From the NCBI GenBank assembly GCA_965649765.1, contig OZ287756.1:63860001-63924000 (forward strand): a stretch of DNA of 64,000 nt, in the 5' to 3' direction. Every line of letters starts with the position of its first letter. Within the stretch, counting starts at the first letter, position 1. The notes beneath the pieces are model-generated. The model did not search any database. It worked only from the letters and a program-made list of their open reading frames with translations, and was not told the DNA's origin. A program made the translations under genes and the position numbers. The stretch is from Bispira polyomma. Its lineage: Eukaryota. Below, piece by piece: positions 31,701-63,245 of the stretch.

Positions 31701-34700
31701 ACTGTTGAAAGCGAGGGTGGCACCAGAACGTTGGAAGGTATGGAAGGTAATATTAGAATGTTGTAGTCCCAAACGCTGGAGTATGCTCGACAGGTTGGCT
31801 CGAACTCAAGTATCAGTCAATGGTATCCAGGTATTGTTCTTCTTAAACTGGAAAAGAGGGGAGTCTCTATGGCCTGGTGTAATGGCTAGGAAGGCCCTAA
31901 CTGCTGAAACTGGGCAGAGGGGGGAGGAAAGTAAGGCAGGAATTTTTATTACCTTGGCAGTATTTTTGGACTGCAGTGTCTTAGCCCACTTTATTATGAG
32001 GTGGAGGCCGGGAGGTGCGAAAATGACGTCACCTCTGGCCAATTGAACTAGGGGAGAAAAATGTGAAGCTGCATGGGGGACCAGCTTAGAGATCCTGAGG
32101 AAAGAGAAGAATGCTGTCAAATACAATGCCTTGAAAACCTGGCCCATGTACATTGTGTCACAGGATTGGATGATTTGGGTAAGAAGGGGGTATATCAATA
32201 ATTCTTTTTATTTTGCCCCTGAAGGGGCTATTAAGCAAGAGTGATTTTTGGTAATACCTGATTCTGGGGTCAGAGAAAGCAGAAACGTTTAGGCCAAATA
32301 ACGCCATCTTGGCTTTAATTGCAGAAAGGTAGTTTGAAATGGAGGAAGCAGAAGCGTGGTTAACCACTAGCGCTTCCAAAAATGATAATAATACAAGTGG
32401 GGAAATATGGTTGGTATTTATATGTGCAAAACAGCAATAAGCTAGGAAAATTCTAAACATGTTGGAATAGGCTTTCTCAGTGGAGGGTCTGAAGGCCTGG
32501 TGAGCCCTGTGTGATGCTTGCGGGGCTATCTGTCCGAGGTGAGAGGACACATCTACAATTAGATAGACCAATCTATTTTAAGCATACTATTACTGATTTT
32601 TACCCATTGTCGATTAGGGACTAGGCTTGTAAGTTTTTTATTTCTATCCTGGGTCAGTTTCCATCTGGACAGCAAATCTGCCACATGATTATCTCTACCC
32701 AGAATGTGAATGGTTCTTAAGCTGATGTCAACAGCAGCTATTTCCATAAAGATGTTTCTGGCTATAGCTGCGAGTGTTAAGTCTTTAGTTCTACCCGAAC
32801 CCAAGATTGTTACGACTGCTGCATTATCACACTGAATTACCAGTCTTTTGCCTGCCCATAGGGACTTCCAGGCCCGTACAGCTAATAATATGTTGAGCAT
32901 TTCTAAATGCACAATAATAAAGTCAAGGTAGCCCAGGGGAAGGGAATACTCATATACTTGGTCATTACACCTGCCCCCGAGTCCTTCAAGACAAGCATCC
33001 AATTGGATGCAGTCAGTGGTTGGGTCATGCTCGAAGAATGCAGTTCCATTGAACACAGGCAGAAATTTATTGAACCAGTTGATATCTTGTCTAAATTCAG
33101 TTGTGAGTGTGATTTTTTTGCTATTACCTGCTACTCTAAGGACGTCTAACATACGGTTTATGAAGACATGTGATACTCTGACACACTTTGAAACGTACAG
33201 TAGTTTACCTAGAAGTGATTGGAGTTCCCGTTTGGTACAACTTGGTTTTTTCTGCCAATCTTTAACTAGGGCGATGGTTTCTGCTAGTTTTTCTTGGGGC
33301 AGTGATACAGTAAAGTTTTCCGTGTCTACCAAGACCCCGAGACATGTAACTTTTGTACCAGGATATACTAGTTTCTTTTCACTTATTGCAAAACCTAGTT
33401 CTTGTAGCAAGTGGTGCAATGTATTAAATGAACGTCTGCTCTCTTGGGCGTTATCGTAACCGATTACGTCGTCTATGTAGTTAGTGACGTCATAACCCTG
33501 GGATTTCATAATGTATCTGACGCCATTGCTGAGGTGTTGAAAAATGGCCCTCCCATGACGAAATCCAAAGGGGAGGCAAGAGTCCACATAGTATTTGTCA
33601 AATTTGAGGCCTAGCAAGTGGAAGTCAGCGGGGTCCATCTTTACGTGACGGAACGCCCGACTGATGTCAATCTTATATATGTGAGTACCACGACCCAGGC
33701 GCCGAATTTTGCTGGTTACTGTGTCAATCGTGGGAAGTGTGAGTACAAAAGGTGTGTTTAAATATCTGTCCTTTGCTACAGTAGTGTTAACTGACTCACC
33801 GTGTGAATAACTTAAGTCAATAATAACCCGCCTGTGAGAGGCCCCCAGTTTTTCCCTCATCATAAATGGGGACACATGGAGGTTCTGTATGGGAGCATTA
33901 TCAAACGGCCCTAACATAGCCCCAAATTTAATTTCCTCTTTCAAATAGGCCTCAATGTCACTAGGGAAATCTACCGCTGATCTGTGGTTTTGTTCTACAT
34001 GGGAGAGAGGACTGTCTCGCTTAATGTCCATGGGGAAACCATATCTGACTAAAAAGGGTAGTTGGGAATCCCAATAATTATATTTTTTGAGGTATTTTTC
34101 CCAGACATCAGGTTTAAGTTCTGACTTGATCTCAATTTGAGGGCCTATAAAGTTGGGACATTTAGCTGAACTAATAATAGTATGTAACTCAATTAATGTA
34201 GCCTGTGAGGTAACCCCTTTATCTGACTGAAGAACCTCAATTTCACCTAATGGAATAAAGCCATACTTGTCTGTTGTCTGTGAATTCCATTGCTGGAATA
34301 TGGGGACATTATGGGCATCCCTTATAAGGTCCCTGTGTTTAGGTCTAAGTTGGAGTTCTAGATCATATTTGTCAGCCTCCAGTGTACTTGTTTTACCTAT
34401 GGGAGTTTTGGGTGAGCCCTTGCTTTTGCCTTAGCTGAGGCCTTTTGTTTCTTTCTCAGTATCAAGAGGTTTTGTTATGGGAATATTCCCATTGTCAATT
34501 ACACCATGTCCCACAGAAAGAGGGGAAAACCTATTGTATGCGGGGACAAAATCTTTGGCACCTTCTCGCAGGTGTGAAACAGGAGGAGGAGGCTTTGTAT
34601 AATAATGTGTTTTCACACCTTTTCCCCCATCCCCATTACTGCAAGTTTTTGTTGCTTTTCCCATACTGACAGATTTCACACCAATTATAGGGGAAGGGAC

Positions 34701-37700
34701 AATGGTACGTGATTTACCCCTAGCAACCACTTTGATTACCTGTTTGCTGACAGAGCTGTCAGACTGTCCTGAAAGGTTGGTAAAACATGCATGGTTAATA
34801 CTTTTTTGTGAAACAGTACTGTTTTTCATTGTTACATTACACATAGGAAATTTCACATTTTGGTTAGTATCTGAGTCGTGTGCACTGGGGGACATGTGTT
34901 TTCCCTGATTTTGTTTTGATTTACCATTTTTTAAAATGTCCGCACAGGATTTTTTTTTTAACCGAGCCCAGTCTGTCCTCCAGTGCGCACTGGCTTGAAT
35001 GTTAGCAAAAGTGTTATATACAATTCTACCATGAAATTGTTTTTCACTATACCTCTCAGTACAAAGTTCATTGTTCATTGTTTTATCATTGAAAACTATG
35101 TTTTCACTCCACCTCGTGCTTTTGTCAGAATAACCTTAATCACTATGACTTGATAAGGGCACTGCATTGCTGCAGTGCCTTACTCGTTTTTTGCATTTGT
35201 TCTGCAATCCTTTGCAGGGTGGGGAAACGACCGCCCATTCAATATACAATTACTACACACATGCAGATAAGTGGTTCTTTTAGTTTCATGGTCCCCTTTT
35301 TGGGGGCAAGTACACTTTTGGAAGAACCTGCATGGAGTACCCTTGTCATGACTTTTCCTGGAGGGGCCTTGTGTTTGACTAGAGTTTTGGCTGGAATTAA
35401 TTACCCGCCTAATTCTGTCGAGTTTATGGGACTCGTCCCATGACACCTTCCCCTCTTCCATTTTACAGGATAGAACTGAAATAAAACTGACTTTACACAT
35501 CCAAACTTGTGATTGCAAATGACAATATTAAAATAGTTGTTTAATAATCTACAGTTCTAAACTTCACTGGCTTCCTATTCACTGTAGAAAAATCCTGTTT
35601 AAAATGCATGTAACCATTTTTAAAGCTGTTGTCTCTCAACAGCCTCACTACCTCGCTACTTAGCTCTCCTTCAGCAGCCTTAAAAGGGGAAAAAGACTCT
35701 GTTTCCTCTAAAAACACACCAAGAGGGTTGGATTTAGAGCCTTCTCAGTCGTCGCCCCTATGTTATAAAACAGTCTTCCAGTTGAACTCAGACTGCTCAA
35801 TACACTTTCTGGTTTTAGGAAAAGGCTTTAACCTATCTCTTCAGGCTCGCCTATCCGCTGTAGTCCTTCTCTTAGGCGTTGACGCATCCATCCTTACGAC
35901 CTGGATATGTTTTTTCATATTTCTATTGGCTGATTGATTCTGATGTTGCACCGTGGAAGATACCTAGCATCAATAAGGCGCGTTAAAAATGCACAGTACA
36001 ATACAATACAATAGAAAAGTTAGCTTTGCAGTCTGGTAACTGAGGTGTTATATGTCAGTAGATAGACATATATCAGCAGACACTTGCTATCTGGGGTACT
36101 AGGTTTGTGCTCTTATCTATCATTTCTGCAAGGAAGAACAATCACTTTACGTAACCTTTAACCTATAAACTTTGGTCTTTAAAAAGTTCAAGCAATGTCA
36201 AAATGCTGTGAGTGTGTCCGTCAAACTTTTATGTTTATCTATCTTGCTCAACAAAAATTTCAACTCATTTGATTTAAAAACTTACAACATCTAATATAGA
36301 CTAGTTATGCATCTGCAAGTTTTAATATCCAACTTGTTTAGTTATGCTTTTCTTTTTTATCATGTTAAAATGAACATTAAAACTGCATTAACAAAACAGT
36401 AATATAGAGTAAAAAATCCTGGGGATGTTAGTTGCTGTCAATTTCACTACAAATATAAAATTATATACTAGTTAATGTGTACAATTTCCCATATATTCCA
36501 CAGAGTCCCAATGGCTGTCAGAAGAACACAAGATCTGGCGGTTACTGAATTTCTCAGTACATGAAACCTTTACAGGTGACAGTTTATCTATATGTTTTGG
36601 CTCCTCTACTACATCTATACAAAGTGTATTCTTACATAAGATTGTACTTTAACTTGATTTTAATGTTGCTATCAGGAATGTATATTGTGACTAGCAATTG
36701 TACTAATTTAGAGGATTTTACATAAATATTTTGACACTGGATCAAATAACACAAAGCAAAAGAAACGATAAAACAATGCTTTTCTATTGAATAGTTTAAT
36801 TTTTATTTTATGCACAAGCAGACACTTGGGTCCACATAATGAAATATTCCATTCATCTGACCAATTTATTTATGTCACCGGGAACGTTCAGATAACATTA
36901 TGATTCTACACATAGTAAATGGTTTCAGAACATAAAAAGCAACAAATCGTACACAGACTTTAACCATTAAAAATATTTTAACATTGAAAATGTTATTATA
37001 CTTCTATTTTAAGAATAATATTTAATGGATATTGTTGTGTTTCAGAATGTATAATTTTCAATTTGACATTGCTCAAATATAGCATAGAAATTTTACTAAA
37101 ATGGTGATAAAAAAGTAATTGCAATAACAGTCGTATAAAAGAAAAAATGTTGATCACTTATCTTTTTTTTTTCTTCTTTTTTTTTTGTGAGCACAATAAG
37201 TTTATTTCCATTTATATATATACAGAGTGTAAAGATTTTACATACATTTTATACAAAATATAAAATGTAAATATACTAACTGCATTTCCTCTTCATTTTT
37301 GTAAAGAATTTATTACTTTTTATTTTTATTTTCTTTCTCTACAATTTATCGTAATTTATAGTTGGAATACTGTTTAAGTGAGCATATAGATCTAAACCTA
37401 GAAGTTTGAATTCACATGTTGTGAATATTATATTAATATTAGATGAATTGATATACTAGCTACACAATACAACACCTAAAAGAAATCAGCCCAGCATAGA
37501 TTTAACAAGAGCTCATTTACAAGTCAGTAGCTTTTCATTTATAAACTCTTTATGATGTAATTTAGGAGACCACTTACTCTATGATAGTTTGAAACAGTGT
37601 CAATTAGGTCCATAAGTTGACATTGGTAATCGTCACCAATCAGCCAATTTTTTTAAAAAAATAAACATTTATTATATAAAAGTTATACAAAATGTACGTA

Positions 37701-40700
37701 CAAACTATTCCCAAAAAAGTTTAGGGTTACAGTACTGGGTAACATCAACAAAACTGACATAGAACTTTATGAAATACACGAACCACATAATTAACAGGCC
37801 ATGTATATTACATAGATTAATACATAGTACCAGAGTACATTATTAAATTACATCAGTACATCAATTCACACATTAGGTTAATAAACCCAACTCCATAACT
37901 CAAATCATACCAGCACAGATTATCGAATTACAAGCTAGCCACATAGCTTGGATTAATATGTAAAAAAGCATACATTATCATATGTTAAGGAAACAACACA
38001 GATTAATGTGTATAGCAAGAGCACATTATCATAGCTTGGATCATTCAGGCCAAATGAAAACATTTAGAGACAACATGTTTGACAATATTATATATCACAT
38101 ATTTATCTAATAGTTACAATCATGCATATATTTAATCCTTATTCATCAGGCTACTGAATTTGGACCATTGTTTAGTAAACATTTCTTCTTTGCAGTTTAA
38201 TTGTGCTAACAGAAGTTGTTCAGTGTACGTCTTTCTTAGTTTTGGTTTTAACAAGTGTAATTGTGGATTTTTATTAACACGGGAGCATTGGAAAATGAAG
38301 GCCTTAGTAACTGTACAAATGGTGTTTCTGGGCAGGAAAGTTTCATCATATTCTAAATATCCCAAAATAATGTTGTATGAGTTTATGTCCAAAGTAACAT
38401 GTATTGACTCATAAATCCAATGTTGTAAAGAATTCCAAAGGTCTATTACAACAGGACATTCAGCAAATAGGTGAATTATTGTTTCAGGCAAACTTTTACA
38501 GAAAGAACAAATAGGAGATCCTTTGATAGACATATCATACAGTAATTTATTGGTGCCTAGTATTCTGTGAATTATTCTATATTGAAGCCATATTAGAAAG
38601 TTATCCTTTAAGGTTTTAACATTATTGAATTGGCTGTATATAGGCTTCGTTCCTCTTTGACTTTGCAGCAGAATTGAAAACTGATAGGGGTATATTGGCC
38701 TTTCCATAATTAGGTTTTGATTATTATTGCCAAATCTTTCTATTAATAAAGAAACTCTTTTTTTAATTTTATAGTATTCTAAAAAGTTTATCGAAACAAG
38801 ATTGTATTTTTGCTTCAAATCGTTCTGTGACAAAAAACTACCATTTCTATCAAACATGTCACCAATAACACAAATTCTATTTTTGTACCAATTTGCAATA
38901 GGTGGAATATTACCAAGTTTCACATTATACCAAAGTGGTATGGAGATAATATGATCATTCCTAATCTTTTCACCTTTATTAACTAAATCACACCAGGCCA
39001 ATATGACATCCTTCCAAAATTGGTTCTTTATTCTGCCACATAATAATTTCAACCAGCCACGACCAAAATCCATTAGCTTACTTACTGGTGAAACAAGTTT
39101 TTCAAACAGTACTGCCCAGTCTGGAGAATTAGATAGTAATAGTTTTCTGATCCAAGTACATTTTAGAGATTTTATAAATATTCAACATTATTCATTTGTA
39201 GACCCCCCTCTAGATAGTCTTTACATACTAAATCTCTTTTAATTTTATAAGGTTTTCCATTCCACAGAAATTTAAATAACATTGTATTGATTTCCTGTAA
39301 AATCTTGATATCAGGTGAGGGTATTGATAAAAATAAATGGGTAAACTTAGATAACAAAAGAGTTTTCATGATTGTTACTTTGCCAAGTGGTGTTAGATGC
39401 TTTTTTTCCCATTGTTTAATAGTTTCCTTTATTTTTAAAACAGCTTTTTCATAGTTTTCAGAGGGGATTTTCTCAATGTCAACATGAAACAAGATACCCA
39501 ACAGAGAGAATTCATAGTTTTAGATGTATTCATTTTTAAGCCGGATATATTACCAAAAATTTCTAAAACATTTAATGATGCCTGCAGAGATTTTTCAGAA
39601 CCATCAAGAATTAGGGTTGTGTCATCAGCATATTGAGTAATTTTGAATTCTTTACCTTCAATAGTGACCCCTTTAATGTTTATGTTATATTTGATTAATA
39701 GGTATAGTATATATGCACATATTATAAATAGATTAGGTGATACAGGATCTCCTTGCTTACAGCCTCTTTTTATTTTTATAAATTCAGAAGTAAATCCAGA
39801 TTGTAAAACAGTTGCATAAATGTCAGCATTAAACAATTTTATCCACTTTACAAAATTATCACCAAAGCCTAAGTAGTTAAGTACATTATACAAAAATTTC
39901 CAAGACACACAGTCAAATGCTTTTTCAAAATCTATCATCATTAATAAACCATCTAACTGCTTTATATCTGTACACTCCATTATATCATAAATTAAACATG
40001 CACTTTCTCCTATGAAGCGCCCTTGTATGAAACCTGTTTGGGAAGGAAGTATAATTTTAGTGAGTATCGATTTTATTCTGGTGGCTAATACCTTAGATGC
40101 CAATTTATATATGACACTCAATAGAGATATCGGTCGCCAATTTTTTAATTGATCCCTAGGTTTGTTTCCTTTTGGTATACAGTTTATTATACATTGTCTC
40201 ATACTATAAGGTAATTTACCAGTTTCATAACTTTCATGTAATGCTCTCAGTACAAAAAATTTTATCTTCACCCAAAAAACTTTATAAAATTCTACTGGAA
40301 GACCATCAATACCAGGGGTTTTGTTATTATTCATGGTTTTTATGGCAGTTTCTATTTCAGTGATTTTGATTGGATCACCTAAAATTCTGCAGTTTGAAAT
40401 ATCTAGGTTTGTAATCTCAGTGGAATTCAACATTTCATATAAATTCACATTTTCAAGACTATCATCACGGCTTGTAAAAAGGGTAGCATAAAACTCCTTA
40501 ACATAAGACAGTATTTCTTTTTGATCTGTTATATAACTACCATTATCCAAATGTATTCTTTTTATTGTTTTGTTAACATAGTTATGTTGTTCTAGGCCTA
40601 GAAAATATTTTGTTGATTTTTCACCTTCTGATAGATCTTGCACTCTGGCTCTAACCTTTTGGCCTGGCATTTTTTGATCTCGTATTATATTCAATTCAAG

Positions 40701-43700
40701 CCTTTTTTGGTCTAAAATAGAAAAATTATTTGCATCATTGCTGTTTTCCAGCTGCTGTATATCTTCAACTAATAATTTTTCTTTTATGCAGTCTTTTCTT
40801 TTTAGATTTGAAGCAAATTTTACAGTAGCTCCTCTAATTCCTAACAACATAACTTCCAAGAAGGTTCTAATTGATATAGTAAACTGAACATTCTCATTCT
40901 CAGGGTTATCAATATATTCAGGACTATATACGGGTACCATATACTGTAATCTTATGTTTTCTATGACCTTGTTTATTGTTTTGATATAATCATGGTTTTG
41001 TAAGAGACTGCAGTTTAGAGACCATATTCCTTTACCTCTTGTAAATCTATTAATTACAATACTAAGTTCTAGGATCGAGTGGTCACTTCGATATCCTGGC
41101 TTTATTTTACAAGTATCAACAAGGTCTATTAGTGGGTTTGACAAGATAAAATAATCTAAACGGGCTTGCTTAAAGGGGTTTTTTTTTCTCCATGTATACG
41201 TTTTACTTTCTGGTTGAAGATGTCTAAAGACGTCTATTAAGTTGTACATACTTATAGTTTCCTTAAACACCTCTCTTGCCTTTGGCTTATTAATGCTGAC
41301 ATAATTGCACGAGTCCAAATTGGGATTCAAAACTAGATTAAAATCTCCACATACTACTAAGTGTGTTTCAGTATTATCTTGTATAAATTCCCTTACCTTG
41401 CGAAAAAATGATGGATTGTCTGAATTTGGAGCATACAGATTGATGAGGCGCATTGATATATCATTTAGATCTAAATCTAACACAATTAGGTTCCCTGATA
41501 AATCTTTTTGTACATTTTTAATTTTGTATTCAAAGGTATTTTTAAGCAATATTGCTACACCGCGAGAACTTGTCTTAATACAATGTACAATAGTCTCACA
41601 TTTTGAATAATTACGCAAAATATTTTCATCTTTTGAAGTAAGGTGGGTATCCTGTAAACAAATTATGTTACAATTAGATTTGATCAAATACTGAGCAACA
41701 TCATATCTTTTCTTTTTATCCTGTATCCCTTGAACTTTTGCTGATGACACATTTAGATTATCACTAGAAGAAACCATTTGACATGTTTCTCAATTTGACA
41801 CATTTTAGAACAATACCACAGTACAGAGTCCTGTTTAAGATGTTAGAAGTAAAAGTACATGCATATTTTATAGTCATCAAATAATGATATCTTAGGAGTA
41901 TGTAACAGCTAAGTACAAAAATGGGAACCGTTTGGTACACACAACAATATACAGAACAAAAATGAAACAAGAAAAAAAAAGTAAATACAAAAAATATATA
42001 CATGACAGCGATAGCTGGCAGTATCTACGGTTTTTGATGTGGATAAGCACCTTGTTAAATGTTTGTTGTATAAACCATTGTGGCATCATTATGTTATATC
42101 TGATATATCTACATGTATATATTTTTGGAACAATAATACACATATACATATATATACCTAAACATACTTTTTAGTGGACTTATGATTTACTTACCTATTA
42201 GTGTATTCTGTAATAAATTCTCTTTTACTGTATTAATCCAATAGAAATACTCCATATCAAACTACATAACTATGTCACTTGGTTTAACACTATCCATGCA
42301 TTTATCATCATACAAGTAAGTACATGTTTATCTGATGAAACTCCAAATCTTGAAAATAATATAAAAAATAGTGGTTTCAAAAATATTTGTGAGTATTACT
42401 TTTTGGAAGAATAAAACATGCATCAGCATATCCTACAAACTAGACTAAAAACACACAAAACACACTGCCGAAAGTGTGACACACTGTGACTTTTAATATC
42501 ATTGAATGTGTACTTGTTTGTGTATTGGGTGACACAAAGAAAACCTATTGGTATTTGCAACCCACTTTTCATTGAGATTTGTTCTTGGAAATTTGTATAA
42601 AAAAAATATATAATCATAGGGAGTCTGTGTATTTGACCCCTTTTAGGGTTGATAGTAAAGGTTTACAAGGTGGGAGAATGGACAGAGGCTTTAGTCTAAT
42701 TAAATCTACACATTTAAAGATACATTATATAATTTGTATTGAGTCTACATTTATGATACACACATTTGGGATTATATATAATCTAACATTAAAAGGAGAC
42801 TTTTAAATAATAAATTTTAGTTTATCATAAATACATTATACATATATAAATACCATTATTGTCATATCAGTTATTCAAAGAGTTTTTTCTGTGAGTGTAA
42901 AAGGTCTAGTTGGTTTTAATTTCCTCCCTAATTCTCCCCATAATTAATTTCCCCATAATGTTTTTGCCTTTCCATTTAGCCTGGTCCCACAGTTCAGAGT
43001 CTCGAAGTGAGAACCTACATCCCCAAAAGTTATCGGTTGGGCTAGCCTCTGCGATAACAGTGCTTCCTGTTTTTAGAAGTGCTTTTGCTAGTGCATCGTT
43101 TTGGGTGAATTTGGATTTCAAACCTTTATATGCTATTTCTTCAGACCTTTCCAACCACACTCCCTTATTATATCCATGTATCTGTTTTCCTAGTCTTTTC
43201 TGCTTAACTGGGTCTTGCTCCTGTACTAATAAGGTCACTGATTCTTGGTCGTCAAATACTCTGGCCTTTTCTATCATCAGATATTGTTCAATACAGTTAA
43301 ATAATTCACCGTTCACTTTAAACTTACATGGGTGGTGGTTTGAAAGTGGGCTATCACAACCAAAGAAAGCTGTGATTTCATTTTGAGACGGCGTGCAGAT
43401 TGAAGTGGGTTGAAGAACAGATGGGAGTTTCCCAATGTACTCAACTGTGAATTTTTCTCCATTAAGTATCAGGAGATCCCCGACTAATTTAACGTTAGGT
43501 CTATGTCTGGGGTTTGAGGGGTTCTGTAGGTGCTTCAGTGCAGCTCTGTATATGGGATACAGACGCCTTCTATTCTGATCTGTTTCTAGTTGAAAGTCGT
43601 CTGCTGTGGTTACCCTACTTGCATTGTACTGTAAGTTGCGTAGGCTTGTGATTTTTATCTTATCTTTAAAATGGTGCACTTTTGCTAGAATGGGTCTTGT

Positions 43701-46091
43701 TTTTCCTGGAATTTTCGGTCCTACTCTGTGAACCCTTTCGAATGTTCTGTCATTTACACAATATATCAAGGGTTTCAGCAAGTTAACGAGAGTGTCTTCA
43801 CAACATTCTTGCGCACTTTCTTGGATGCCAAAGAAACGGAGGTTATTTTTTCTTTGGTGGGTTTTGTTTTTGAGAAGTCTTCTTCGTAAGGCAGTATTTT
43901 CTTTTTGTAAGGATTCTACCTGTTCAGATAAGGTCTTCATGGACGGAATGAAGACACCCTGTTCTAGTTTATCAAACCGTTTACTGAGGGGCTCTATAAT
44001 GTCATGATTTGATTCCTTAATTTCCTCTTTAAGAGTGTCAACTGCTTTCTTTATGGAAGTATTGATTAAGGACAAAATTTCACTGGAGGTGTAATTGGCC
44101 ACTGGGCTTTTGTCTACTTCCTCGAATTTCCTCACTTTACTTGTTACTGGGGTTGACATGTTTGTTTACACTTGTGCACAGTACAGTGTATGGCTGATCA
44201 CTTATCTTTTACTATTTTTATTGTGTACATTGTTGTAGACATCTACCCAGAAATAATTTTATTTATATACATTTTAACAGTGGAACAATATTCGTTTACC
44301 ATTGCAAATATTGTACTACATGATATAATTATGTCATACCTCTTTTTATTGTTGTCTCTTGGCCATTTAGATGATAATGAATTCATTCAAAAAGCCAGAG
44401 CCGAGAGGTTACAAACATTTTGTAAGAAGTGGAGTGCTGACCATACAAACAATAAGTCTACACTAGCTGAGAAGAATGTAATGATTGATGACACAAACAA
44501 GATCTTATTATTGTCCATTCCCAAAACAGGCTGTACAGTGTGGAGGTGGACCATCTACAACAGCACAGCCAAAGTGACAACAGATTTTGAAGATGGTCAA
44601 AAGCTCCATTTTATTCACACCAAAAGTTTTCTGCGGTCTCAAGGCTTCCGAATATTCCTCAAGATGCCAGAACAAGAAAAGACTAAACTGCTAGACCATT
44701 ACTTTACGATTTTAACTGTGAGACATCCTCTCGACAGACTAGAATCGGCCTATGTTGATAAGTTTGTTAACCACAGAAGTGAAAATGAAAATTTTCGGGC
44801 AGCAGTAATACAACACAAGATGAATAGTGAAGGTCAGTTGGATAACTCCAAAGTAGACCTGACTATAAATGTTACTTTTGAGGACTTCTTGTCATATGTT
44901 CTGGTCAGCTTTAATGGTCACTGGAACAGTGTCATGAATCTAGCCATGCCTTGTATGGTAAACTACAAGTAAGTAATCCTCTATTTTACCACTAATAAGT
45001 AGGGTTGTTGGCAATATCTTTTAAAACTGTGTTAAGTATTTGAATCCCAAAGTGTAAAAATCTATTGTTCTTGCCTCTAATGTTAGAACTGCTGGCGACA
45101 TGTGGTCTTTGTGTCAGTTATTCTACAGCTTTAATGGACATTCAACAAAAAATTTAGAAAATATGTAGAGGAATGTAATATAAAGCTGATTTGAAAGTAG
45201 AGATAAACACCAACAGTTAACGTGTTTTACACATAATCACAATATGAGTATACTTATTTCTATTATGAATAACGATTTACAAATATACACCAATTGAGTC
45301 CTACATTTTGTGGAATGTTACTGCTATTCCTTGGCATAAATATTTTCCTATTACAAAAGATTGCATCTCATCTAAACCATAGTGTTATTTGTGACCTATT
45401 TTTAGTGATACAGTATTTATCATTTCTCTGGTTAGTTCTTGAATTGGCAGTAATATTTCTAAGTCACTGTCTCTTTTTTAAAAATCTCTTAAAGGTTAAA
45501 TTACTACTGCACTAAACTCATTTTACATACTTTCGGCAAATTGTTTGTGTTACTGACCTGTAATCTTTTCCAGTGTTCCCTAAACATTAAAAAAATGTAA
45601 TAGACTACTAGGGCTTATCTTTTGGTGTCCACTTTTACTACATTGCTCAACGGGTAAACAAACTGGTATTTATAACCCCTTTATGTTCAGGTAATTTTTT
45701 GTGATGTACTATTGATTTATACAAATCCTAAACCACTCTTTCAAGTGAAAATTTTATCTAATGCTCTGTGTTGTTTAAATATGAATATTCCAGATATATC
45801 TCCAAGACAGAGACCTTGAATAACGACCTTGAATACATTATAAGATCCAGACTTTCTGGAAATGGGCAACCTCAATCCTTCAACACCAACCGAGACTCCA
45901 GTCCAATTACCCTCCACCAAGGCAGACTTTTGACTGTGTTCTCTGAGCTTAAAGATCCACAGAAGTGGATTAAGCAATTAATGGATATTTTCCAGGATGA
46001 CATGAACATGTTTGGATATTCATATTCAGTACAGAAAGGCAAGGTGTATGCACACTGCACTTCATATTACAAAGAGACTATTTGTATTTGA
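25738..46091 (+). CDS. Carbohydrate sulfotransferase (Sulfotransfer_2), paralog 3, ~363 aa, with transposon-expanded introns
   Basis: Predicted exons 25738-25861 (TM; homologous to 2481-2589), 36504-36575 (homologous to 3312-3383), 44371-44968, 45794-46091. Exon lengths 72/598/298 match paralog 1. Motifs SIPKTGCTVWR and VRHPLDRLESAYVDK. Confidence 0.85.
26073..26221 (+). repeat. 149-bp direct repeat, left copy
   Basis: Matches 35486-35634 with one visible mismatch. Confidence 0.95.
27020..28480 (-). mobile_element. Degraded L1/Tx1 ORF2 (endonuclease plus RT start); inverted copy of ~47540-49000
   Basis: AHGTNHGKGV, DKDGRFIL, IILGGDCN, GFWKFNCS, RPISLLNVDKK, YIDFEK. Confidence 0.75.
29211..30420 (-). 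mobile_element. Degraded non-LTR RT region of the LINE that hosts the family A YR element
   Basis: VPSHWSKAILTPILK, YKGVSLL, EQNGFRKGKSCENH, QGDNLSPALF, DYCSGIWG. Confidence 0.75.
31560..32571 (-). pseudogene. Tyrosine recombinase of family A, copy 1 (frameshift plus stop)
   Basis: FLRISKL, KWAKT, HTFQRSGAT, GTWTSDCVWKY. Confidence 0.88.
32559..35078 (-). pseudogene. Pol (RT-RNase H) of the family A element, ~840 codons with one premature TAA at 34431-34433
   Basis: ORFs 34431-35078 and 32559-34031 share a frame and the 133 intervening codons are open. RT motifs RVIIDLS, KIDISRAFRH, LPFGFRHG, YIDD; RNase H motifs LDAC, HLEMLN, CDN, NHVADLLSR. Confidence 0.88.
35486..35634 (+). repeat. 149-bp direct repeat, right copy
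   Basis: Matches 26073-26221. Confidence 0.95.
35550..36012 (+). mobile_element. 5'-truncated L2 LINE with (TACAA)n tail; a related tail lies at 57005-57080 (-)
   Basis: LHWLPIHCR..LFKMHVTIFKAVVSQQPHYL...GFRAFSVVAP...NSLP...YLFRLAYP; tail gcatcaataaggcgcgttaaaaatgca. Confidence 0.8.
38132..41777 (-). pseudogene. L1/Tx1 ORF2 (APE endonuclease, RT, CCHC domain), broken into three ORFs
   Basis: CLQDTH, NLYAPN, GDFN, RLDYF, SDHS; PGIDG, WRPISLL, DFEKAFD, QGDPVSP, YADD; CSFCKSLPETIIHLFAEC. Frameshifts near 39500 and 39170. Confidence 0.92.
42906..44159 (-). CDS. LINE ORF1p (coiled coil, RRM, CTD) fused to a C-terminal NADAR/YbiA-like domain, 417 aa
   Basis: ORF1 motifs RKNNLRFFGIQE, FERVHRVG..RPILAK, DDF...NRRRL, LLILNG. 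NADAR motifs from ~aa 265: FFG.DSPLSNHHP, EQYLMIEKA..F.D, P..QKRLGK, SKFTQN..L...LLKTG, AEASPTDNFWG, WKGKNIMG. Confidence 0.88.
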   Translation of the reverse strand: MSTPVTSKVRKFEEVDKSPVANYTSSEILSLINTSIKKAVDTLKEEIKESNHDIIEPLSKRFDKLEQGVFIPSMKTLSEQVESLQKENTALRRRLLKNKTHQRKNNLRFFGIQESAQECCEDTLVNLLKPLIYCVNDRTFERVHRVGPKIPGKTRPILAKVHHFKDKIKITSLRNLQYNASRVTTADDFQLETDQNRRRLYPIYRAALKHLQNPSNPRHRPNVKLVGDLLILNGEKFTVEYIGKLPSVLQPTSICTPSQNEITAFFGCDSPLSNHHPCKFKVNGELFNCIEQYLMIEKARVFDDQESVTLLVQEQDPVKQKRLGKQIHGYNKGVWLERSEEIAYKGLKSKFTQNDALAKALLKTGSTVIAEASPTDNFWGCRFSLRDSELWDQAKWKGKNIMGKLIMGRIREEIKTN

Positions 46092-49000: not shown

Positions 49001-49831
49001 TGCAAACAGTTAGGGCCAAACAGCTAACTAGTAGAAATTGATACCCTGGACTTGTAAAATTGTGTTAGAGACAATCTTTGACAAAATTTTACATTTAAGA
49101 AATAAAAGAAACCTGACTGACCACCGAGAATTTCGAAGAGTTTTTCTGAGGTCCTCCAAACCCCATGGTGAACGTCTAGCAGAGTTAAATTTTGGTACAC
49201 TTTTACACTAGCTCCTAAATGGAATATCGCACAAGAGCCAAAATATTAAATGTTAATGGTTGGACTTTGTCAAATAATAACCTGTGGAAGGCCATTAGAA
49301 AATATTTAAATAAAGACAGTGTATGTATTATTATGAGAGATAGACCCGCAAGGGCTAGCCAGATCAGTGCTGCCAGTAATTTGTTTAGTCCAGGGTCTTA
49401 ACCCCTAAGCTAATTGGTGAACTTTGCACTAATTGACCCCTGTCTTCCCGCCGTTTTTGTTGGGATATCACTTTTAGTATTGAAGTCCAAAGGGCGACAC
49501 CGCCATTTTTATTTTTTACTTTATTTTGTTTGTGATTTTAATTTTCGTTAAGTCTCTGGAACTATTCATGTTGTGCTATCTAACTATATTTGGGATTGAT
49601 CACACAGACGTTCTGGACACTATAGATGAAGTCACGACTACAGTGGTGTTTTGTACTCATACTTTGAGTCTTGTGTATATGCTTGCTTGAAATCTGATAA
49701 AGGGACATATCCCCTCATTATACTAGCATATTAAGATCTAGTCTACTAATATATCTCTACATCTAAATTAATAGTCAATAGTATATACACAGGTATCAAA
49801 ACGCGAGTGTTTTTATATTATTCAAAGAAAA

Positions 49832-50695
49832 ATGGCTCCGAGAAAAACATATGATTGCCTTAAATGTGGCACAAACCATCAGAAACCTATCGACAGTAAC
49901 TGTAAATTAGCTACACTGCTTGCTGACGACGAGGATGTGCCGAACTCTGCTTCGACTAGTGAAAATCAAAGTCCTGGTGATATTAATATCCAGATACTAA
50001 ATGAACTACGTGCTCTAAGTGGTCGAATGACCAAAGTGGAACGCCAGGTAATTCACAGTCAGCATGGAGCCCCGACTTCTCCAAGTCGGGGGACATCTGT
50101 AATGACCAGTCCTGCACCCCGACCTGCTGCACTGCTGCCTGATCCGGAAGATGTCCTCGTACCCACCATAGACACACTTAGATCCTCACAGAGCCTACAG
50201 ACTGCCGTGGACACACGTCTCAAGGAGTTAGCTATGATAAATGAGACAGGTACGTTCAAGTCCCAGAGGGGGGGTAGTGATACGGTCTGGGTGAGGAAAC
50301 TGGTCCCTTGGCAACAGAACTTTATTCTAGGTGGACATAGTAAATCTAGTCTCTCGTATGACTCATTAACAATGCCCCAATGGGTCGCTGGTTTTTCAAA
50401 CATCATTAGAGAAGAAAGTAATGTTGCAACCAAAAATTTAATGTATTTATCAGACCTCATGGAGGACGCTCATGACTTCTCCTGGAGTGTGGCCAAGGGA
50501 AGTCATGCAGTTCTATCCTGTAAAATGGAAGAGGGGAAGGTGTCATGGGACGAATCCCATAAACTTGACAGAATTAGGCGGACTCATGCCCAGAGGGTAA
50601 CTAATTCCAGCCAAAACTCTAGTCAAACACAAGGCCGCTCCAGGAAAGTCATGACACGGAAAACTTTACTGTATCACTGCCCCAAGAAAAACTAG
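49832..50695 (+). CDS. Gag-like ORF1 of the family A element (C-terminus lost by deletion)
   Basis: N-terminal C-x2-C-x3-H-x6-C, FKSQRGG, W.QNFIL, QWVAGF..II, YLSDLMEDAHDFSW..AK..HAVL; homologous to 61694-62464. Confidence 0.8.
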   Translation: MAPRKTYDCLKCGTNHQKPIDSNCKLATLLADDEDVPNSASTSENQSPGDINIQILNELRALSGRMTKVERQVIHSQHGAPTSPSRGTSVMTSPAPRPAALLPDPEDVLVPTIDTLRSSQSLQTAVDTRLKELAMINETGTFKSQRGGSDTVWVRKLVPWQQNFILGGHSKSSLSYDSLTMPQWVAGFSNIIREESNVATKNLMYLSDLMEDAHDFSWSVAKGSHAVLSCKMEEGKVSWDESHKLDRIRRTHAQRVTNSSQNSSQTQGRSRKVMTRKTLLYHCPKKN

Positions 50696-51407
50696 CAGAA
50701 ACCATCTCCCTAGTTAAAGATTGGCAGAAAAAACCAAGTTGTACCAAACGGGAACTCCAATCACTTCTAGGTAAACTACTGTATGTTTCAAAGTGTGTCA
50801 GAGTATCACGTGTCTTCATAAACCGTATGTTAGACGTCCTTAGAGTAGCAGGTAATAGCAAAAAAATCACACTCACAACTGAATTTAGACAAGATATCAA
50901 CTGGTTCAATAAATTTCTGCCTGTGTTCAATGGAACTGCATTCTTCGAGCATGACCCAACCACTGACTGCATCCAATTGGATGCTTGTCTTGAAGGACTC
51001 GGGGGCAGGTGTAATGACCAAGTATATGAGTATTCCCTTCCCCTGGGCTACCTTGACTTTATTATTGTGCATTTAGAAATGCTCAACATATTATTAGCTG
51101 TACGGGCCTGGAAGTCCCTATGGGCAGGCAAAAGACTGGTAATTCAGTGTGATAATGCAGCAGTCGTAACAATCTTGGGTTCGGGTAGAACTAAAGACTT
51201 AACACTCGCAGCTATAGCCAGAAACATCTTTATGGAAATAGCTGCTGTTGACATCAGCTTAAGAACCATTCACATTCTAGGTAGAGATAATCATGTGGCA
51301 GATTTGCTGTCCAGATGGAAACTGACCCAGGATAGAAATAAAAAACTTACAAGCCTAGTCCCTAATCGACAATGGGTAAAAGTCAGTAATAGTATGCTTA
51401 AAATAGA

Positions 51408-52410
51408 TTGGTCTATCTAATTGTAGATGTGCCCTCTCACTTCAGACAGATAGCCACGCAAGCATCACACAGGGCTCACCAGGCCTTTAGACCCTCCACT
51501 GACAAAGCCTATTCCAACATGTTTAGAATTTTCCTAGCTTATTGCTGTTTTGCACATATAAATACCAACCATATTTCCCCACTTGTATTATTATCATTTT
51601 TGGAAGTGCTAGTGGTTAACCACGCTTCTGCTTCCTCCATTTCAAACTACCTTTCTGCAATTAAAGCCAAGATGGTGTTATTCGGCCTAAACGTTTCTGC
51701 TTTCTCTGACCCCAGAATCAGGTATTACCAAAAATCACTCTTGCTTAATAGCCCCTTCAGGGCCAAAATAAAAAGAATTATTGATATACCCCTTCTTACC
51801 CAAATCATCGAATCCTGTGACACAATGTACATGGGCCAGGTCTTCAAGGCATTGTATTTGACAGCATTCTTCTCTTTCCTCAGGATCTCTAAGCTGGTCC
51901 CCCATGCAGCTTCACATTTTTCTCCCCTAGTTCAATTGGCCAGAGGTGACGTCATTTTCGCACCTCCACCTCATAATAAAGTGGACTAAGACACTGCAGT
52001 CCAAAAATACTGCCAAGGTAATAAAAGTTCCTACCTTACTTTCCTCCCCCCTCTGCCCAGTTTCAGCAGTTAGGGCCTTGCTAGCCATTACACCAGACCA
52101 TAAAGACTCCCCTCTTTTCCAGTTTAAGAAGAACAATACCTGGATACCATTGACTGATACTTGAGTTCGAGCCAACCTGTCGAGCATACTCCAACGCTTG
52201 GGACTACAACATTCTAATATTACCTTCCATACCTTCCTACGTTCTGGTGCCACCCTCGCTTTCAACAGTAATGTCCCTATTCAAGATATACAGAGTCATG
52301 GCACCTGGACGTCGGATTGCGTCTGGAAATATATAACCCAAGACCATAATGCTTCCCAGCAGGTGGTCTTGGCTTTCCAGACCCTCCTTTCACACTCCAC
52401 TACCACCTAG
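51408..52410 (+). pseudogene. Tyrosine recombinase of family A, copy 2 (disrupted)
   Basis: FLRISKL, HTFLRSGAT, HGTWTSDCVWKY; contains a frameshift and a TGA shared with copy 1. Confidence 0.88.
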
Positions 52411-56250: not shown

Positions 56251-57326
56251 ATGTCTTTGTATCCTGTGCCCCACCATCCTCTTCTAAAGATGAATCGATC
56301 ATAATGTTAACAACTTATCGAGGAGTTTGTACTACTTATTTTACAGCTTGTGGTGACACATTTTTTCTGTTTTTTTTTAAAACATCGTTGGGAAATGCCA
56401 AGGATTGCTCACAATCGCATAATCAGGGCCTCTCCCCCACCCTTTATGATAGTGGAACAGCACCATTACCAAAGGACCCTGAGTTGCCAGAATATTACAG
56501 ATAAGTCCAATGACCTCCCTGATTATATCCCTGAGGTGGCCCTAATTGCACAATCATAATGGTCGGGGCTATGATCAGCACAGTGAAACAGGGGTATTAT
56601 AAAGTTATGATGGGAATAAACATGTTTACGTTAACTTTACACTATTCTCCCCAATTGGTTCACCTTAAAGATGTTGGCCCTATTGTCGTTATGTGTTTGG
56701 ATTAAGTTAATTTCGTTACCTAAATGGCAAGATTCATTAAACTGGTGAGAAATTATACAATTAAATTGTTCCCTTTATGTTCTCACACTCTCTGATAGTT
56801 CTTAAAACTTGATGGCCCAGTCCTATGGGAAAGAAGCCAATAAGTGAAAAGCAGTATATAAAACATATTTGGAGTTTATTTTAAAACATTGATTTGTTAC
56901 CCTTTTTGTTACAACATTAACATGTTAGCATTACTATACACCACTGTCTGTTAACACAACTACTTTGACACATTACTTTTGTTAGGATTATTAACAGCTT
57001 TTGTTATAATAATAATAATAATAATGCATTTTTAACACGCTTTATTGATGCCAGGCATCTTCTAAAGCGCAACAGACATGACATTAATATTAATCTACAT
57101 GTTAAAACTCTACTACTGACACCTATAATACAATATAGCTGGGAAGCGTTTAGCTCATGGAGCATTCTAGCTTACATCTTTTATAGTTACTAATCAGGCA
57201 TGCCATTTACCTACAGTGTTAAGCTATCGTTAACCATAGTTGAGGAATGTCTGGAGATACTAAAACTTAAGTATCAAAATTTTAAACAATTGTAAAGGGC
57301 CAAACCCCAAATAAGTTGTAGGAATT

Positions 57327-58295
57327 TTAAAACATTAATTTTTGAAAGGTAGTGGGTACTACACTCGAAGCTTTTGGAGTTGAATTTAGGTATGTCCACA
57401 CTGCATCACTCTTCCAATTTCCATGGGTTTTAATATTTTGCAAATTAACATTGCTGTCAAAAGCAAGAGAAGCACCGCTTCTACGAAATGTATGAAATCC
57501 AAAAGCTTTGGGAGAAAGTCCAATCTTAGTAATAGCCAGTTTAAGAAAAGATCCAGCTTTAAAGGCTGTAAGAGGTACTATACCAGCTTTAGTTTTAATT
57601 AAAAATAGAGGAGACTCTTCATGAGCAGAAATTTTTTTACACATTTGTCGAATTGCTTTTACCGGGCATATCAATTTGTCGGATAATAAAGGCAATTGTA
57701 CTACATGGTATTGATCTGATACGTGCATATTTTTTGCACAAGTCATTACAATATGTATACCTGGATTAACCCATATGAGATCAGTCCTAGTGGGAAATCG
57801 TGTCCTATCAAATTCCTTTACTGAATTTGGTACTAAGGAAGCAAGCCTAAAAAAGCCAAAATAAGCACTTAGAAAGAGAGCTACATATGTTTCTGCATTT
57901 AATAAACCTTGTATTGCTTTAATCAATTTTTTCAGTTGGTTTACGGTTAGGACACCCTTTACCTTAGGTCTGATTGGGGCATTGATCTTAACTGATTTTA
58001 TTAACATTTGCACTTTTCTAGAAGTAAGACCATTTTTAGGCCAATCAAAAAGCCCAAAGTAATGGGAGAGTCGACATGTGGTTGCTGATAGACGCAGCTC
58101 TGAGTCCTTGTTGAATGAGGTACTCTACATAGCAGACGAGAGTCCGTGGGCAGTGGGGAACTGTCAGCTGTAAGAAGGTCATGAAGGCCAGGAATAAGTT
58201 AAACGTCGAGTCATAGGATTTCCTGGTACGAGGTCTCAAGGCCGTAGGTATGCTCTCCATAGCTTGGTGTTTCAATCTCTCAGCCATTGATTTGC
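57327..58295 (-). pseudogene. Tyrosine recombinase of family C (frameshifted near 58040)
   Basis: FFRLASL, CAKN, HTFRRSGAS, HGNWKSDAVWTY: complete R-K-H-R-H-Y catalytic set. Confidence 0.9.
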
Positions 58296-61200: not shown

Positions 61201-61693
61201 AGGCATATTATTACATGATTTGGTATAAACATACATACTATTAGAACGAGTATCATGTTGTAACCATTTACTATCAGTATTACAAATTTCTTGTCTAAAA
61301 ATTTTTGCACGTGGATTTAATTTAGTTTTATTACAAATACCTTCCTTATGATAATAATTGTGTCGTTGTAATTTAAGCCAAGGTTATTATAACTTTTCCC
61401 GCCGTTGTTAACTTTAGACACATTACAACTAATAGGGTTAAACTCGCTGCTCAGTTTTCTGTCCCTTACTATCATTTTTCATTCGCATACACTTGCAAGC
61501 GGGGTGATCATGCTTTTTGCCACGTGTCTCTTTGTAGCAGTAAGTGCAGTAGTGCTCATATTTGAAACCTTTGGACACGTGGTCCTTGTCTAGCTTACAG
61601 GTACCCTTATTAAACAAGGAGCAGACACGACTTTCTGTGTTCCTGTTTTCACTACTACCTGTACCACCGTTATAGGGAACCCTTTGGGCATTT

Positions 61694-62464: not shown

Positions 62465-63245
62465 TTTGTAAAACACTTGACTCTGGAAAGACTTTTGCCG
62501 GCTTGACTGTTGGGAATTTAAAAAGGTAATTCTAATTCTAACTAAAATTGAATTTCCTATGTAGTCAAGCAGACAGGAGTCCAATTTTCCAATATGGCGC
62601 TCAGCCCTCTAAACTTCCAACTGACTTTGAACCCCAAGTGTGGAGGTATTTATGCACATTGATTTCAGCAAGCCCCCATGTGCTTTAACAACTCACAGCC
62701 TCAGTATCAGAAGGCCTAGTTGTATGCAAGAAATGGGTAGACAGCCACCATGTGATTTAATATCTCAAGCTTTGCAGACACCTTGTGGTCTGGTTATGTG
62801 CAGTACATACAGGCCAACCTAGGGGTGACCTTCCGCTTTAACCATTGAAACCCAAAAACTAATATTGATACGAAAATAGCAAGGCCACTTGTGTTTAATT
62901 TTATGTTTTTTAAGCTTTCCCTAAGACTGACACGGTTTGCTACTTAAATTCTGCAACACCTATTAAATGACCAGCTTCCTAACTGAATGATTAACGATTT
63001 TTCGGATGAAATTTGCCTTGACACATTTGACCTCGGGATGGATGTTCTCTTTGTCTAGTGTACAATACCAATGGTTACATATGTTCCGGCACAGACTATG
63101 GTCAGCGCTGCCACTGCCTAGTCCAATATTGGTTCACACTACACTTCATTAACCAGTCATGTTGATAGTCTTGATTAAACACACAGCGTCTTGTTACTCT
63201 AGATGGAGCATGTAATATATGTTAGCCATCTAAATGCTATTCCAC

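Follow-up and report, generated by a model that had tools for sequence, protein, structure and literature searches.

Why would a LINE carry, on the protein that probably coats its RNA, an enzyme domain of the kind that strips ADP-ribose from guanine bases? The question is raised by a single open frame of 417 amino acids (P0001; 42906..44159) in the window, a stretch of 64,000 nucleotides of the Bispira polyomma genome, in which coiled coil, RRM, CTD and NADAR follow one another. This ORF1 and all other features of the element lie on the minus strand. The element is a dead copy from a large group of L1-clade LINEs, parts of which are still young, and its L1-clade marks are a poly(A) tail, a target-site duplication and 5' truncation. 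The whole insertion measures 7032 nt (37167..44198) and is framed by a 16-nt duplication (AAAAGATAAGTGATCA), with the 5' copy at 44195..44210 and the 3' copy at 37151..37166. Within the window this 16-mer occurs exactly twice (44210-44195 and 37166-37151), and the last 4 nt of the 5' copy overlap the element start. Alignments to sibling copies all start at 44198, so that the window copy is truncated 39 nt 5' of the ORF1 ATG; a longer 5' end is common to eight siblings. The opposite strand at the 5' cut reads TTTT/A, the preference of the L1 endonuclease. This insertion site adjoins a sulfotransferase exon.

Downstream of ORF1 follow an AT-rich spacer of 1128 nt that is also present in siblings (41778..42905), ORF2 with APE endonuclease, RT and zf-RVT (38132..41777), and a 3' UTR (37167..38131) in which AATAAA stands at 37206 and an A-rich tail precedes the second duplication copy. 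Two frameshifts, near 39510 and 39180, spread the endonuclease-RT over three frames and render the copy inactive, as the first-pass annotation had suspected. The WGCR in place of WGxG, which it had listed as a further sign of decay, is mostly though not wholly specific to this copy, with Gly at 382 in 11 of 12 sibling loci (L003-L014); an extra Gly408 is absent from all 12.

The same annotation had read the frame as an L1-type ORF1p fused to a NADAR domain, and both parts of this reading hold. Residues 270-414 match Pfam NADAR PF08719 (E 1.1e-37, 130.2 bits versus a cut-off of 35.1); the ORF1p half goes unrecognised by Pfam. The C-terminal, YbiA-type NADAR (aa ~262-417; 42909..43376) has sequence matches to PDB 8BAU, an ADP-ribose-bound NADAR of Phytophthora (E 3e-17), and to 2B3W, the YbiA of E. 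coli. A Foldseek search with an AlphaFold2 model of ORF1p (mean pLDDT 90.6, pTM 0.76) returned the same two structures (8BAU, E 2.4e-10, TM 0.75 by target length; 2B3W, E 3.5e-7) together with the human L1 ORF1p trimer 2YKQ (E 2.9e-6). The coiled coil (aa 25-102; 43854..44087) is one helix in the model and matches 2YKO, 2YKP and 2YKQ, and the RNA-binding module of RRM (aa ~103-188) and CTD (aa ~189-256), together 43392..43853, matches the human L1 RRM-CTD structures 2LDY and 2W7A, with RRM/CTD boundaries drawn from the secondary structure of the model. The window element thus resembles human LINE-1 in the coiled coil, RRM and CTD fold of its ORF1p as well as in poly(A) tail and duplication, but the two ORF1p sequences share only ~17% identity and vertebrate L1 has no NADAR.

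Within the enzyme domain, window residues E291, K298, K321, W335, E371, D376 and W379 correspond to 8BAU E43, K50, K75, W89, E125, D130 and W133, and the catalytic set E43-K50-E125 is intact (E291, K298, E371); at 8BAU R79, D86 and R93 the window copy has K, K and S. E371, aligned to E125, is the last-strand Glu that marks the YbiA subfamily, a position held by Asp in BC4488/DarG1 and by His in phage gp30.3. The Phytophthora nicotianae protein (8BAU) and YbiA agree with the LINE domain in fold, in these seven residues and in the last-strand Glu, but they are stand-alone proteins with no RNA-binding fusion, and the LINE NADAR does without the D86 and R93 contacts. With Glu rather than Asp at the subfamily position and ORF2 rather than DarT1 as the neighbouring gene, the protein is no DarG1. 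Neither is it a RibA/RibD-fused N-glycosidase, as its N-terminal partner is L1 ORF1p and hence not a riboflavin-synthesis domain; the JGI label that four homologues bear is the name of a family.

The fusion is a family-wide trait, as the annotation had supposed. A NADAR search of the B. polyomma genome gave 2147 first-look candidates, and ORF2 lies downstream of ORF1-NADAR in all seven families examined in this genome, a recurrence that rules out a chance or artefactual fusion in a single copy. Spacers between the two frames vary from 0.9 to 2.7 kb. A set of loci (L015-L018, L022-L023; no ORF2 within 1.5 kb) was suspected of being an ORF1-only, non-autonomous family, an idea given up when a more distant ORF2 was located in L015, L016, L018 and L022. 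The idea that ORF1-NADAR might be part of a Gypsy element (L017/L032) was likewise dropped, the Gypsy being a later insertion into the spacer. Both frames are open in four copies, and a young family represented by L033 combines an intact ORF1, an intact ORF2 (1272 aa) and the catalytic Glu-Lys-Glu set. In the intact relatives L033 and L031, ORF2p comprises APE endonuclease, RT and a C-terminal zinc motif and is closest to L1 ORF2p; that of L033 matches the human protein along its length (E 8e-89). Insertion into a specific repeated target is a habit of many Tx1 families; here the 5' flanks of seven copies from one young family are unrelated to each other, and the 14-nt 5' leader that marks the L025 family gave no matches when a donor-site counterpart was sought. 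A metagenome scan found two loci with NADAR matches, with no ORF2 match at either.

The evolutionary study of the active site informs us on which parts of the enzyme have been maintained. We surveyed 167 near-complete fused NADARs from the host genome and public collections, with a mean pairwise identity of 37%. In 8BAU numbering, E125 is invariant (167/167), W89 is kept in 166 and E43 in 164, D130 in 153 with N in another 11, and the W133 position is aromatic in 161. K50 is retained in 151 fusions (90%) and the full Glu-Lys-Glu set in 150, which bears out the expectation that catalytic residues persist in most lineages. Other contacts to ADP-ribose are relaxed: D86 is kept in 13/167, R79 is K/R in 104/167 and the pyrophosphate ligand R93 in 22/167; E. 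coli YbiA, which is active, also has no D86 equivalent. K50 itself is missing in 15 of the 167 proteins, corresponding to 10 changes on a weak FastTree tree, and 14 of these 15 retain both glutamates. It is also missing in three of the seven families of the host genome, one of which comprises 12 copies of 99-100% protein identity, one copy having an intact 1273-aa ORF2. The phosphate-binding lysine has been lost repeatedly, a very young family included; C7 NADAR of E. coli requires the lysine at this position.

Purifying selection on the NADAR, a further expectation of the annotation, is evident from pN of 0.23-0.44 against pS of 0.67-0.88 in 21 pairs and from dN/dS of 0.16-0.25 in the five unsaturated pairs. 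Copy-to-copy dN/dS within families was set aside, the changes being few and mostly due to post-insertion decay. Among the seven host-genome families the NADAR is the most conserved part of ORF1 (48% identity, compared with 41% for the RRM, 33% for the CTD and 29% for the coiled coil), and because it is the slowest-evolving domain there is no arms-race signature.

ORF1 has also moved: its RRM-CTD and NADAR travelled together between two lineages of ORF2 (AU p <0.001). The NADAR tree, built from 33 LINE rows versus 7 others after degenerate and redundant rows were dropped, is mostly unresolved, and a single origin is neither shown nor rejected by it (p-AU 0.52). Tandem-NADAR proteins appeared nested among the LINE domains, but this nesting lacked support. 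Viral NADAR structures are only 18-33% identical to the LINE NADAR and therefore indicate no viral donor, and a donor search through shorter stand-alone relatives scored none of seven candidates. The 188-protein set was gathered with NADAR-containing queries and so gives no measure of NADAR loss among close ORF1 relatives; a search with RRM-CTD only returned one protein, which has a NADAR. Upstream of three ORF2 sister loci (~53-55% identity) we found one NADAR remnant, the other two loci being without an ORF1 match within 3.2 kb.

The grafting of an enzyme onto ORF1p has a parallel in the esterase accessory domain reportedly found on non-LTR ORF1p, an enzyme of other fold and chemistry, and the ORF1 evolution of non-LTR elements is said to be modular. 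Phage orphan NADARs, for their part, reportedly counter ADP-ribosylation. The first-pass annotation knew of no NADAR in an ORF1, a statement contradicted by PMC12477816, which describes a YbiA-family NADAR in the ORF1 of several Repbase Tx1 families from Crassostrea gigas. The bare fusion is thus already in print and a retroelement NADAR is not new; what our analysis adds is the movement of ORF1 as a unit between ORF2 lineages and the repeated loss of the lysine. The oyster ORF1s are alike in having a NADAR in a LINE ORF1, in YbiA subfamily and in L1/Tx1 clade, a likeness drawn from their published description. That account gives two sentences besides an alignment figure, and its text passages are silent on the order of the domains, on residue conservation, on selection, on breadth and on ORF1 swapping (PMC12477816). 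The same source reports a YbiA-type NADAR in the Pol of an Ectocarpus Gypsy lineage and proposes that such domains take part in RNA processing; this retroelement differs in being an LTR element with the NADAR N-terminal on Pol, not on an RNA-coating protein, and its closest hits are bacterial. Invertebrate positive-strand RNA viruses offer another parasite-encoded NADAR, located in polyproteins, largely exclusive of macrodomains and proposed to counter ADP-ribosylation (PMC9503650).

What might the fused enzyme do? The reading we put forward, to which we give an even chance, is that the NADAR acts as an N-glycosidase that removes base-linked ADP-ribose from element RNA or cDNA. By analogy with L1 ORF1p, whose fold it shares, ORF1p would trimerise through its coiled coil and coat its own RNA through RRM-CTD. 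The NADAR sits at the C-terminus, forms one confident model with the CTD, and has been inherited and swapped together with RRM-CTD, which may provide nucleic-acid targeting, the role played in DarG1 antitoxins by a basic extension. To judge from conserved residues and family biochemistry, the two ribose-contacting glutamates of the NADAR would cleave the N-glycosidic bond that joins ADP-ribose to an exocyclic amine of a base, guanine N2 and perhaps cytosine N4. According to PMC11125620 and PMC11833690, all NADAR subtypes tested, YbiA included, strip guanine ADP-ribose from DNA and RNA, and higher activity is suggested to stem from greater nucleic-acid binding; less favourably for the reading, activity in vitro was no predictor of protection in cells (PMC11125620). 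Such erasure would leave the element RNA fit for translation and copying, or rid the new cDNA of the modification. The conservation of the catalytic set, purifying selection and the young, intact L033 with its full set argue for base-linked ADP-ribose erasure, as do the separate capture of a NADAR by the Ectocarpus Gypsy and its presence in RNA virus polyproteins. Against it stand the absence of K50 in 15/167 fusions and 3/7 families, the relaxed R93 and R79, and the missing arms-race signature, to which the blank searches for a guanine-type writer in the host genome have to be added.

The writer could be a host enzyme that restricts retroelements, or a genotoxin or microbial toxin that the element merely suffers. 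NADAR removes neither the guanine-N1 ADP-ribose made by PARP15 (bioRxiv 2026.03.31.715305) nor phosphate-end ADP-ribose (PMC11833690), and host PARPs, with 44 exon-level matches in the genome, are therefore not an obvious opponent. Guanine-N2 writers do occur in animals, a point in favour of erasure, in the form of CARP-1 homologues, mainly of bivalves (PMC12945103). Searches of the host genome for Scabin-like and DarT transferases were blank, with the controls also silent. Three cholera-toxin-like ART (ARTC) genes on contig 14 have an E-x-E loop, which goes with arginine targets, and not Q-x-E as in ScARP. We hold it as a tentative and rather doubtful proposal that some invertebrates restrict retroelements by guanine ADP-ribose on RNA or cDNA and that the LINE radiation answers with an RNP-loaded eraser. 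The writer would then be a CARP-1-like or other transferase, many eraser copies would ride on each RNP, and the eraser ORF1 would be of enough value to have changed hands, as a cassette, between deeply separated lineages of ORF2, with separate captures by Gypsy and RNA viruses. We found no literature report of enzyme-level counter-defence in a LINE.

The residue pattern also bears on other functions. The distal-ribose residues (E43, E125, D130, W89) are near-invariant while those for pyrophosphate and adenosine (K50, R79, R93, D86) are relaxed, as might be expected of an active N-glycosidase on another riboside, be it a ribosyl or phosphoribosyl adduct, a product of RNA repair or processing, or a reactive metabolite of the RNP. 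The glutamates that outlast K50 point the same way, and so do the known substrates of YbiA, riboflavin-pathway phosphoribosides, and the possibility that physiological targets of stand-alone NADARs differ from guanine ADP-ribose. Such an enzyme would mean housekeeping of the RNA intermediate rather than counter-defence, near the RNA-processing suggestion of PMC12477816. We nevertheless consider it unlikely, with K50 kept in 90% of fusions, an aromatic W133 position in nearly all and no such substrate known in LINE RNPs.

We attach a similarly small probability to a NADAR that chiefly binds, its ligand being ADP-ribose, poly(ADP-ribose), a nucleotide or a protein. During target-primed reverse transcription it would bring the RNP to PARylated nicks, or else it would tether the RNP to RNA-processing machinery. 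Human L1 integration is promoted by PARP1/2 acting at the nick (review PMC8535693), the C. elegans NADAR protein SNA-3 acts in trans-splicing (PMC11125620), and young families persist without K50; an ADP-ribose reader, however, would be expected to keep the pyrophosphate and adenosine contacts and to relax the catalytic glutamates, and the opposite is seen. That the domain was captured once and kept solely to cap the CTD structurally or to help assemble the RNP, its enzyme site vestigial, would fit the near-invariant Leu-Pro of the linker, the whole-chain pTM, the position of the NADAR within 20 aa of the C-terminus in 171/172 fusions and the unrejected single origin. Yet among these divergent proteins no polar positions are better conserved than the active-site Glu and Asp, which a scaffold would not need, and we regard this explanation as highly improbable.

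With the bare fusion already published, the value of the locus lies in a testable mechanism rather than in a first sighting. Within one genome, young families that keep the essential lysine and others that lack it form natural test pairs. Many proteins from marine samples labelled 'YbiA-like' or 'ribA/ribD-fused' are probably LINE ORF1s and may confound surveys of host NADARs. Little is known of what NADARs do in animals, and endogenous guanine or cytidine ADP-ribosylation in eukaryotes is not excluded but not yet found (PMC12945103). That purifying selection maintains a NADAR on the RNA-coating protein throughout a large radiation of LINEs suggests that cellular RNA in these animals bears, or lies close to, a substrate of the enzyme, and restriction by a guanine mark, if true, would be a sign that animals ADP-ribosylate guanine endogenously.

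The 417-aa ORF1 protein of the window LINE (P0001) carries a NADAR domain (PF08719, E 1.1e-37) at residues 270-414, its sole Pfam domain over the cut-off, and the nearest solved sequences are the Phytophthora NADAR 8BAU (E 3e-17) and E. coli YbiA (E 1.8e-4). In an AlphaFold2 model from a 42-sequence alignment (pLDDT 90.6, pTM 0.76), one helix of 78 residues leads into three compact units. The Foldseek matches of this model include 8BAU (E 2.4e-10), YbiA (3.5e-7) and trimeric human L1 ORF1p (2.9e-6). These results bear out the first-pass annotation, which had proposed an L1-type ORF1p in the N-terminal part and a NADAR in the C-terminal part. It knew of no description of NADAR in ORF1, but a passage of a 2025 paper (PMC12477816) already notes that the ORF1 of several Crassostrea gigas Tx1 families appears to hold a YbiA-family NADAR. 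The window element therefore belongs to a briefly described kind and is not a first sighting. Passages of the same paper report NADAR on Pol in one Ectocarpus Gypsy lineage and suggest that retroelement NADARs may process RNA intermediates. Among the papers listed by our searches of freely accessible literature, no further report on NADAR in retroelements was found, and none on DUF1768 with retrotransposition or on retrotransposition with ADP-ribosyl, macrodomain and ORF1p. For three additions made here, namely the survey of active-site residues, the swap of ORF1 and the young family without the lysine, these searches turned up no earlier report.

ORF1 occupies 44159-42906 on the minus strand as a single open frame and is followed, after a 1128-nt spacer, by an endonuclease-RT-zinc ORF2 spread over three frames; the copy, already suspected to be inactive, is dead. 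Truncated 39 nt above the ORF1 ATG, the 7032-nt insertion is flanked by a 16-nt duplication with exactly two occurrences in the window, has AATAAA and an A-rich tail at its end, and has the cut site TTTT/A, the preference of the L1 endonuclease. Another AATAAA, at 37673 and followed by a short A run, lies some 500 nt ahead of this tail; it possibly marks the native 3' end, in which case the remainder (37673-37167) would be a 3' transduction. The odd residues of P0001 are largely copy-specific: of 12 sibling loci, 11 retain Gly382 and none shares the extra Gly408. The LINE is antisense to an adjoining host sulfotransferase exon, starting about 130 nt from it, in a cluster of Sulfotransfer_2 paralogues at 3863-4504 (plus), 10484-11140 (minus), 44157-44972 (plus) and 45762-46091 (plus). 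LINE and neighbouring exon recur about 164 kb away (L002, G000:C9:64065097-64069347; 99.88% over 4251 nt), either as a recent segmental duplication or as an assembly haplotype. Degenerate elements at about 18200-19500, 32500-35100, 49800-52000 and 57300-62600, with RT/RNase H-like and tyrosine-recombinase-like frames, are probably DIRS-type retrotransposons.

The Bispira polyomma genome (1.035 Gb, 75 contigs) holds a large radiation of NADAR-LINEs. Searches with P0001 and with a NADAR profile gave 2240 and 2147 first-look candidates, figures that are not copy numbers; 100 P0001 candidates scored yielded 103 matches, many of them outside its own family at 33-45% identity across RRM and NADAR, and 150 of 150 scored profile candidates exceeded the cut-off. 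An ORF2 match lay inside the 1.5-kb flank at 22 of 30 NADAR loci; among the other eight, four had ORF2 further on and one was interrupted by a Gypsy element. Each of the seven families examined has one or more copies with a downstream ORF2, and the fusion extends beyond the single copy in which it was noticed. Two families look recently active. L033 has an intact ORF1 and a 1272-aa ORF2 that matches human L1 ORF2p across 1200 residues (E 8e-89), and its family includes four copies with both frames open, judged by coordinates. The L025/L031 family comprises 12 copies at 99-100% protein identity, nine without stops, with a 1273-aa ORF2 in the single copy fetched.

Several structural details accompany these families. 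At G000:C3:30896884-30899166 (L040 upstream), a window-family copy with an open 1273-aa ORF2 is truncated in the spacer and lacks ORF1. Inter-ORF spacers measure about 0.9-2.7 kb, several with degenerate tandem repeats, and at L032 (G000:C6:43652000-43658000) the spacer is occupied by a Gypsy LTR element that has frames for gag and pol and terminal repeats of 203 bp, 98.5% identical. The young family L024-L030 has at least two different 5' ends about 750 nt upstream of ORF1: three copies show a splice-acceptor-like pyrimidine tract, then GATGGC, and two on separate contigs instead share a 14-nt leader beginning ATCAGT, as if spliced on. A 20-mer over the leader junction occurs exactly twice in the genome, where no donor-site version of the leader was found.

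Outside this genome, a word-indexed search returned 48 proteins, and a profile run against 1.84 billion representatives at least 150 down to 360 bits, nearly all full-length fusions. RRM-CTD and NADAR occur together in 172 of the 188 proteins examined (P0001-P0049, P0097-P0235), a set chosen with NADAR in the query and therefore silent on the rate of domain loss; of the other 16, five are short and probably fragments of ORF1, and 11 have one NADAR or several in tandem but lack RRM-CTD. Because of their RRM-CTD match, the collected fusions, whose records come without genomic context, are read as putative LINE ORF1s; at the two metagenome NADAR loci obtained, no ORF2 was seen. In the ESM Atlas, the closest clusters come from eukaryotes, and from annelids where a phylum is recorded (four records in all). 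Two to seven tandem NADAR domains without RRM occur in P0097, P0098, P0102, P0116, P0145, P0159, P0169, P0176 and P0180, with many catalytic positions replaced in P0098, P0116 and P0169 and intact and degenerate domains mixed in P0097 and P0102. The JGI label 'ribA/ribD-fused uncharacterized protein' on P0005, P0010, P0018 and P0037 is likely a systematic mislabel, since their alignments with ORF1p-NADAR cover 65-87% of the query.

We compared six families for which ORF1 and ORF2 residues 211-445 were both at hand, in two of them from different copies 97-98% identical. ORF2 groups the window family with L023 and L033, and L017 with L025 and L034 (identity 43-60% within, 27-36% between groups), whereas ORF1 groups window, L017 and L023 against L025, L033 and L034. 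The split seen in either partition is rejected by the other (p-AU 0.00015 with ORF1, 0.008 with only its RRM-CTD, 0.011 with only its NADAR, 9e-5 with ORF2), in a test of six taxa with groups named after the identity matrices had been seen. The most important pairing, that of the L017 family, was seen in three copies. By these comparisons, RRM-CTD and NADAR have a common history and were exchanged between ORF2 lineages that diverged deeply. Other LINEs are reported to exchange ORF1 in modular fashion, so the swap demonstrates co-inheritance of the two domains and not necessarily selection on NADAR. A single origin of the LINE NADARs was neither shown nor rejected by the tree test, and no donor was found among viral structures and shorter stand-alone relatives.

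Across the seven families of this genome, conservation within ORF1 is highest in NADAR (48%, compared with 41% in RRM, 33% in CTD and 29% in the coiled coil). The dN/dS check called for by the annotation indicates purifying selection, with pN far below pS in 21 of 21 family pairs and a roughly estimated dN/dS of 0.16-0.25 in the five unsaturated pairs. Residue roles (taken from parts of PMC11543638) were transferred via the 8BAU alignment to 167 near-complete fused domains. E125 (167), W89 (166), E43 (164), D130 (153), K50 (151) and K75 (139) are largely kept; K or R stands at R79 in 104 and at R93 in 22, and 13 retain D86. By these counts, the half of the site predicted to hold the distal ribose and break the N-glycosidic bond is nearly invariant, and the putative pyrophosphate/adenosine half looser. 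The catalytic core (E43, K50 and E125) is intact in 90% of sampled fusions. K50 is absent in 15 of 167 (both glutamates present in 14 of those), which takes 10 changes on a tree of weak resolution, and in three of the seven families here, including the youngest examined. According to a passage of PMC11543638, E. coli C7 NADAR cannot do without the corresponding lysine, and its loss is therefore the chief finding that speaks against a simple eraser.

Which enzyme could such an eraser oppose? The portions of the literature consulted describe NADARs that take guanine-N2 ADP-ribose off DNA and RNA, some also cytidine ADP-ribose (PMC11125620, PMC11833690, PMC12945103), and no action on thymidine, phosphate-end, 2'-OH or PARP15-made guanine-N1 linkages (the same papers and bioRxiv 2026.03.31.715305). 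Given this specificity, a writer resembling pierisin, CARP-1 or DarT1 would be required. Scabin-like and DarT profiles found no matches in this genome, their controls being silent too. An ART profile found three intronless genes (L043-L045, G000:C14:20.79-20.92 Mb) with ankyrin-like repeats and a cholera-toxin-like ART bearing R, S-x-S and E-x-E motifs. They are candidate intracellular mono-ADP-ribosyltransferases and not evident guanine writers, because ScARP has Q-x-E and CARP-1 Y at the E-x-E place (a section of PMC12945103). A PARP profile matched 44 places of 89 candidates; at G000:C1:70.79-70.86 Mb, three tandem open frames (1640, 1988 and 2326 aa) form an unusual intronless multi-PARP cluster in which every frame has a pair of PARP-domain matches. 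CARP-1 homologues, mainly bivalve and also found in cnidarians, sponges and other bilaterians according to part of PMC12945103, are obvious candidate writers.

Architecture, domain co-inheritance and purifying selection are established for the fusion, and several functions have to be weighed against them. A binding role is improbable in our view; in its favour, PARP activity at the nick promotes human L1 (in part of the review PMC8535693) and SNA-3 acts in trans-splicing (in part of PMC11125620). Action on another N-riboside substrate or in RNA processing has a similarly small chance, and a structural role is very unlikely. By analogy with L1 ORF1p, the fusion protein would trimerise and coat RNA, and family biochemistry suggests that its NADAR would be a hydrolase. 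We give an even chance to the NADAR erasing base-linked ADP-ribose from the element's own RNA or cDNA; the annotation's full claim, that it would counter a dedicated host defence against retroelements, is doubtful.
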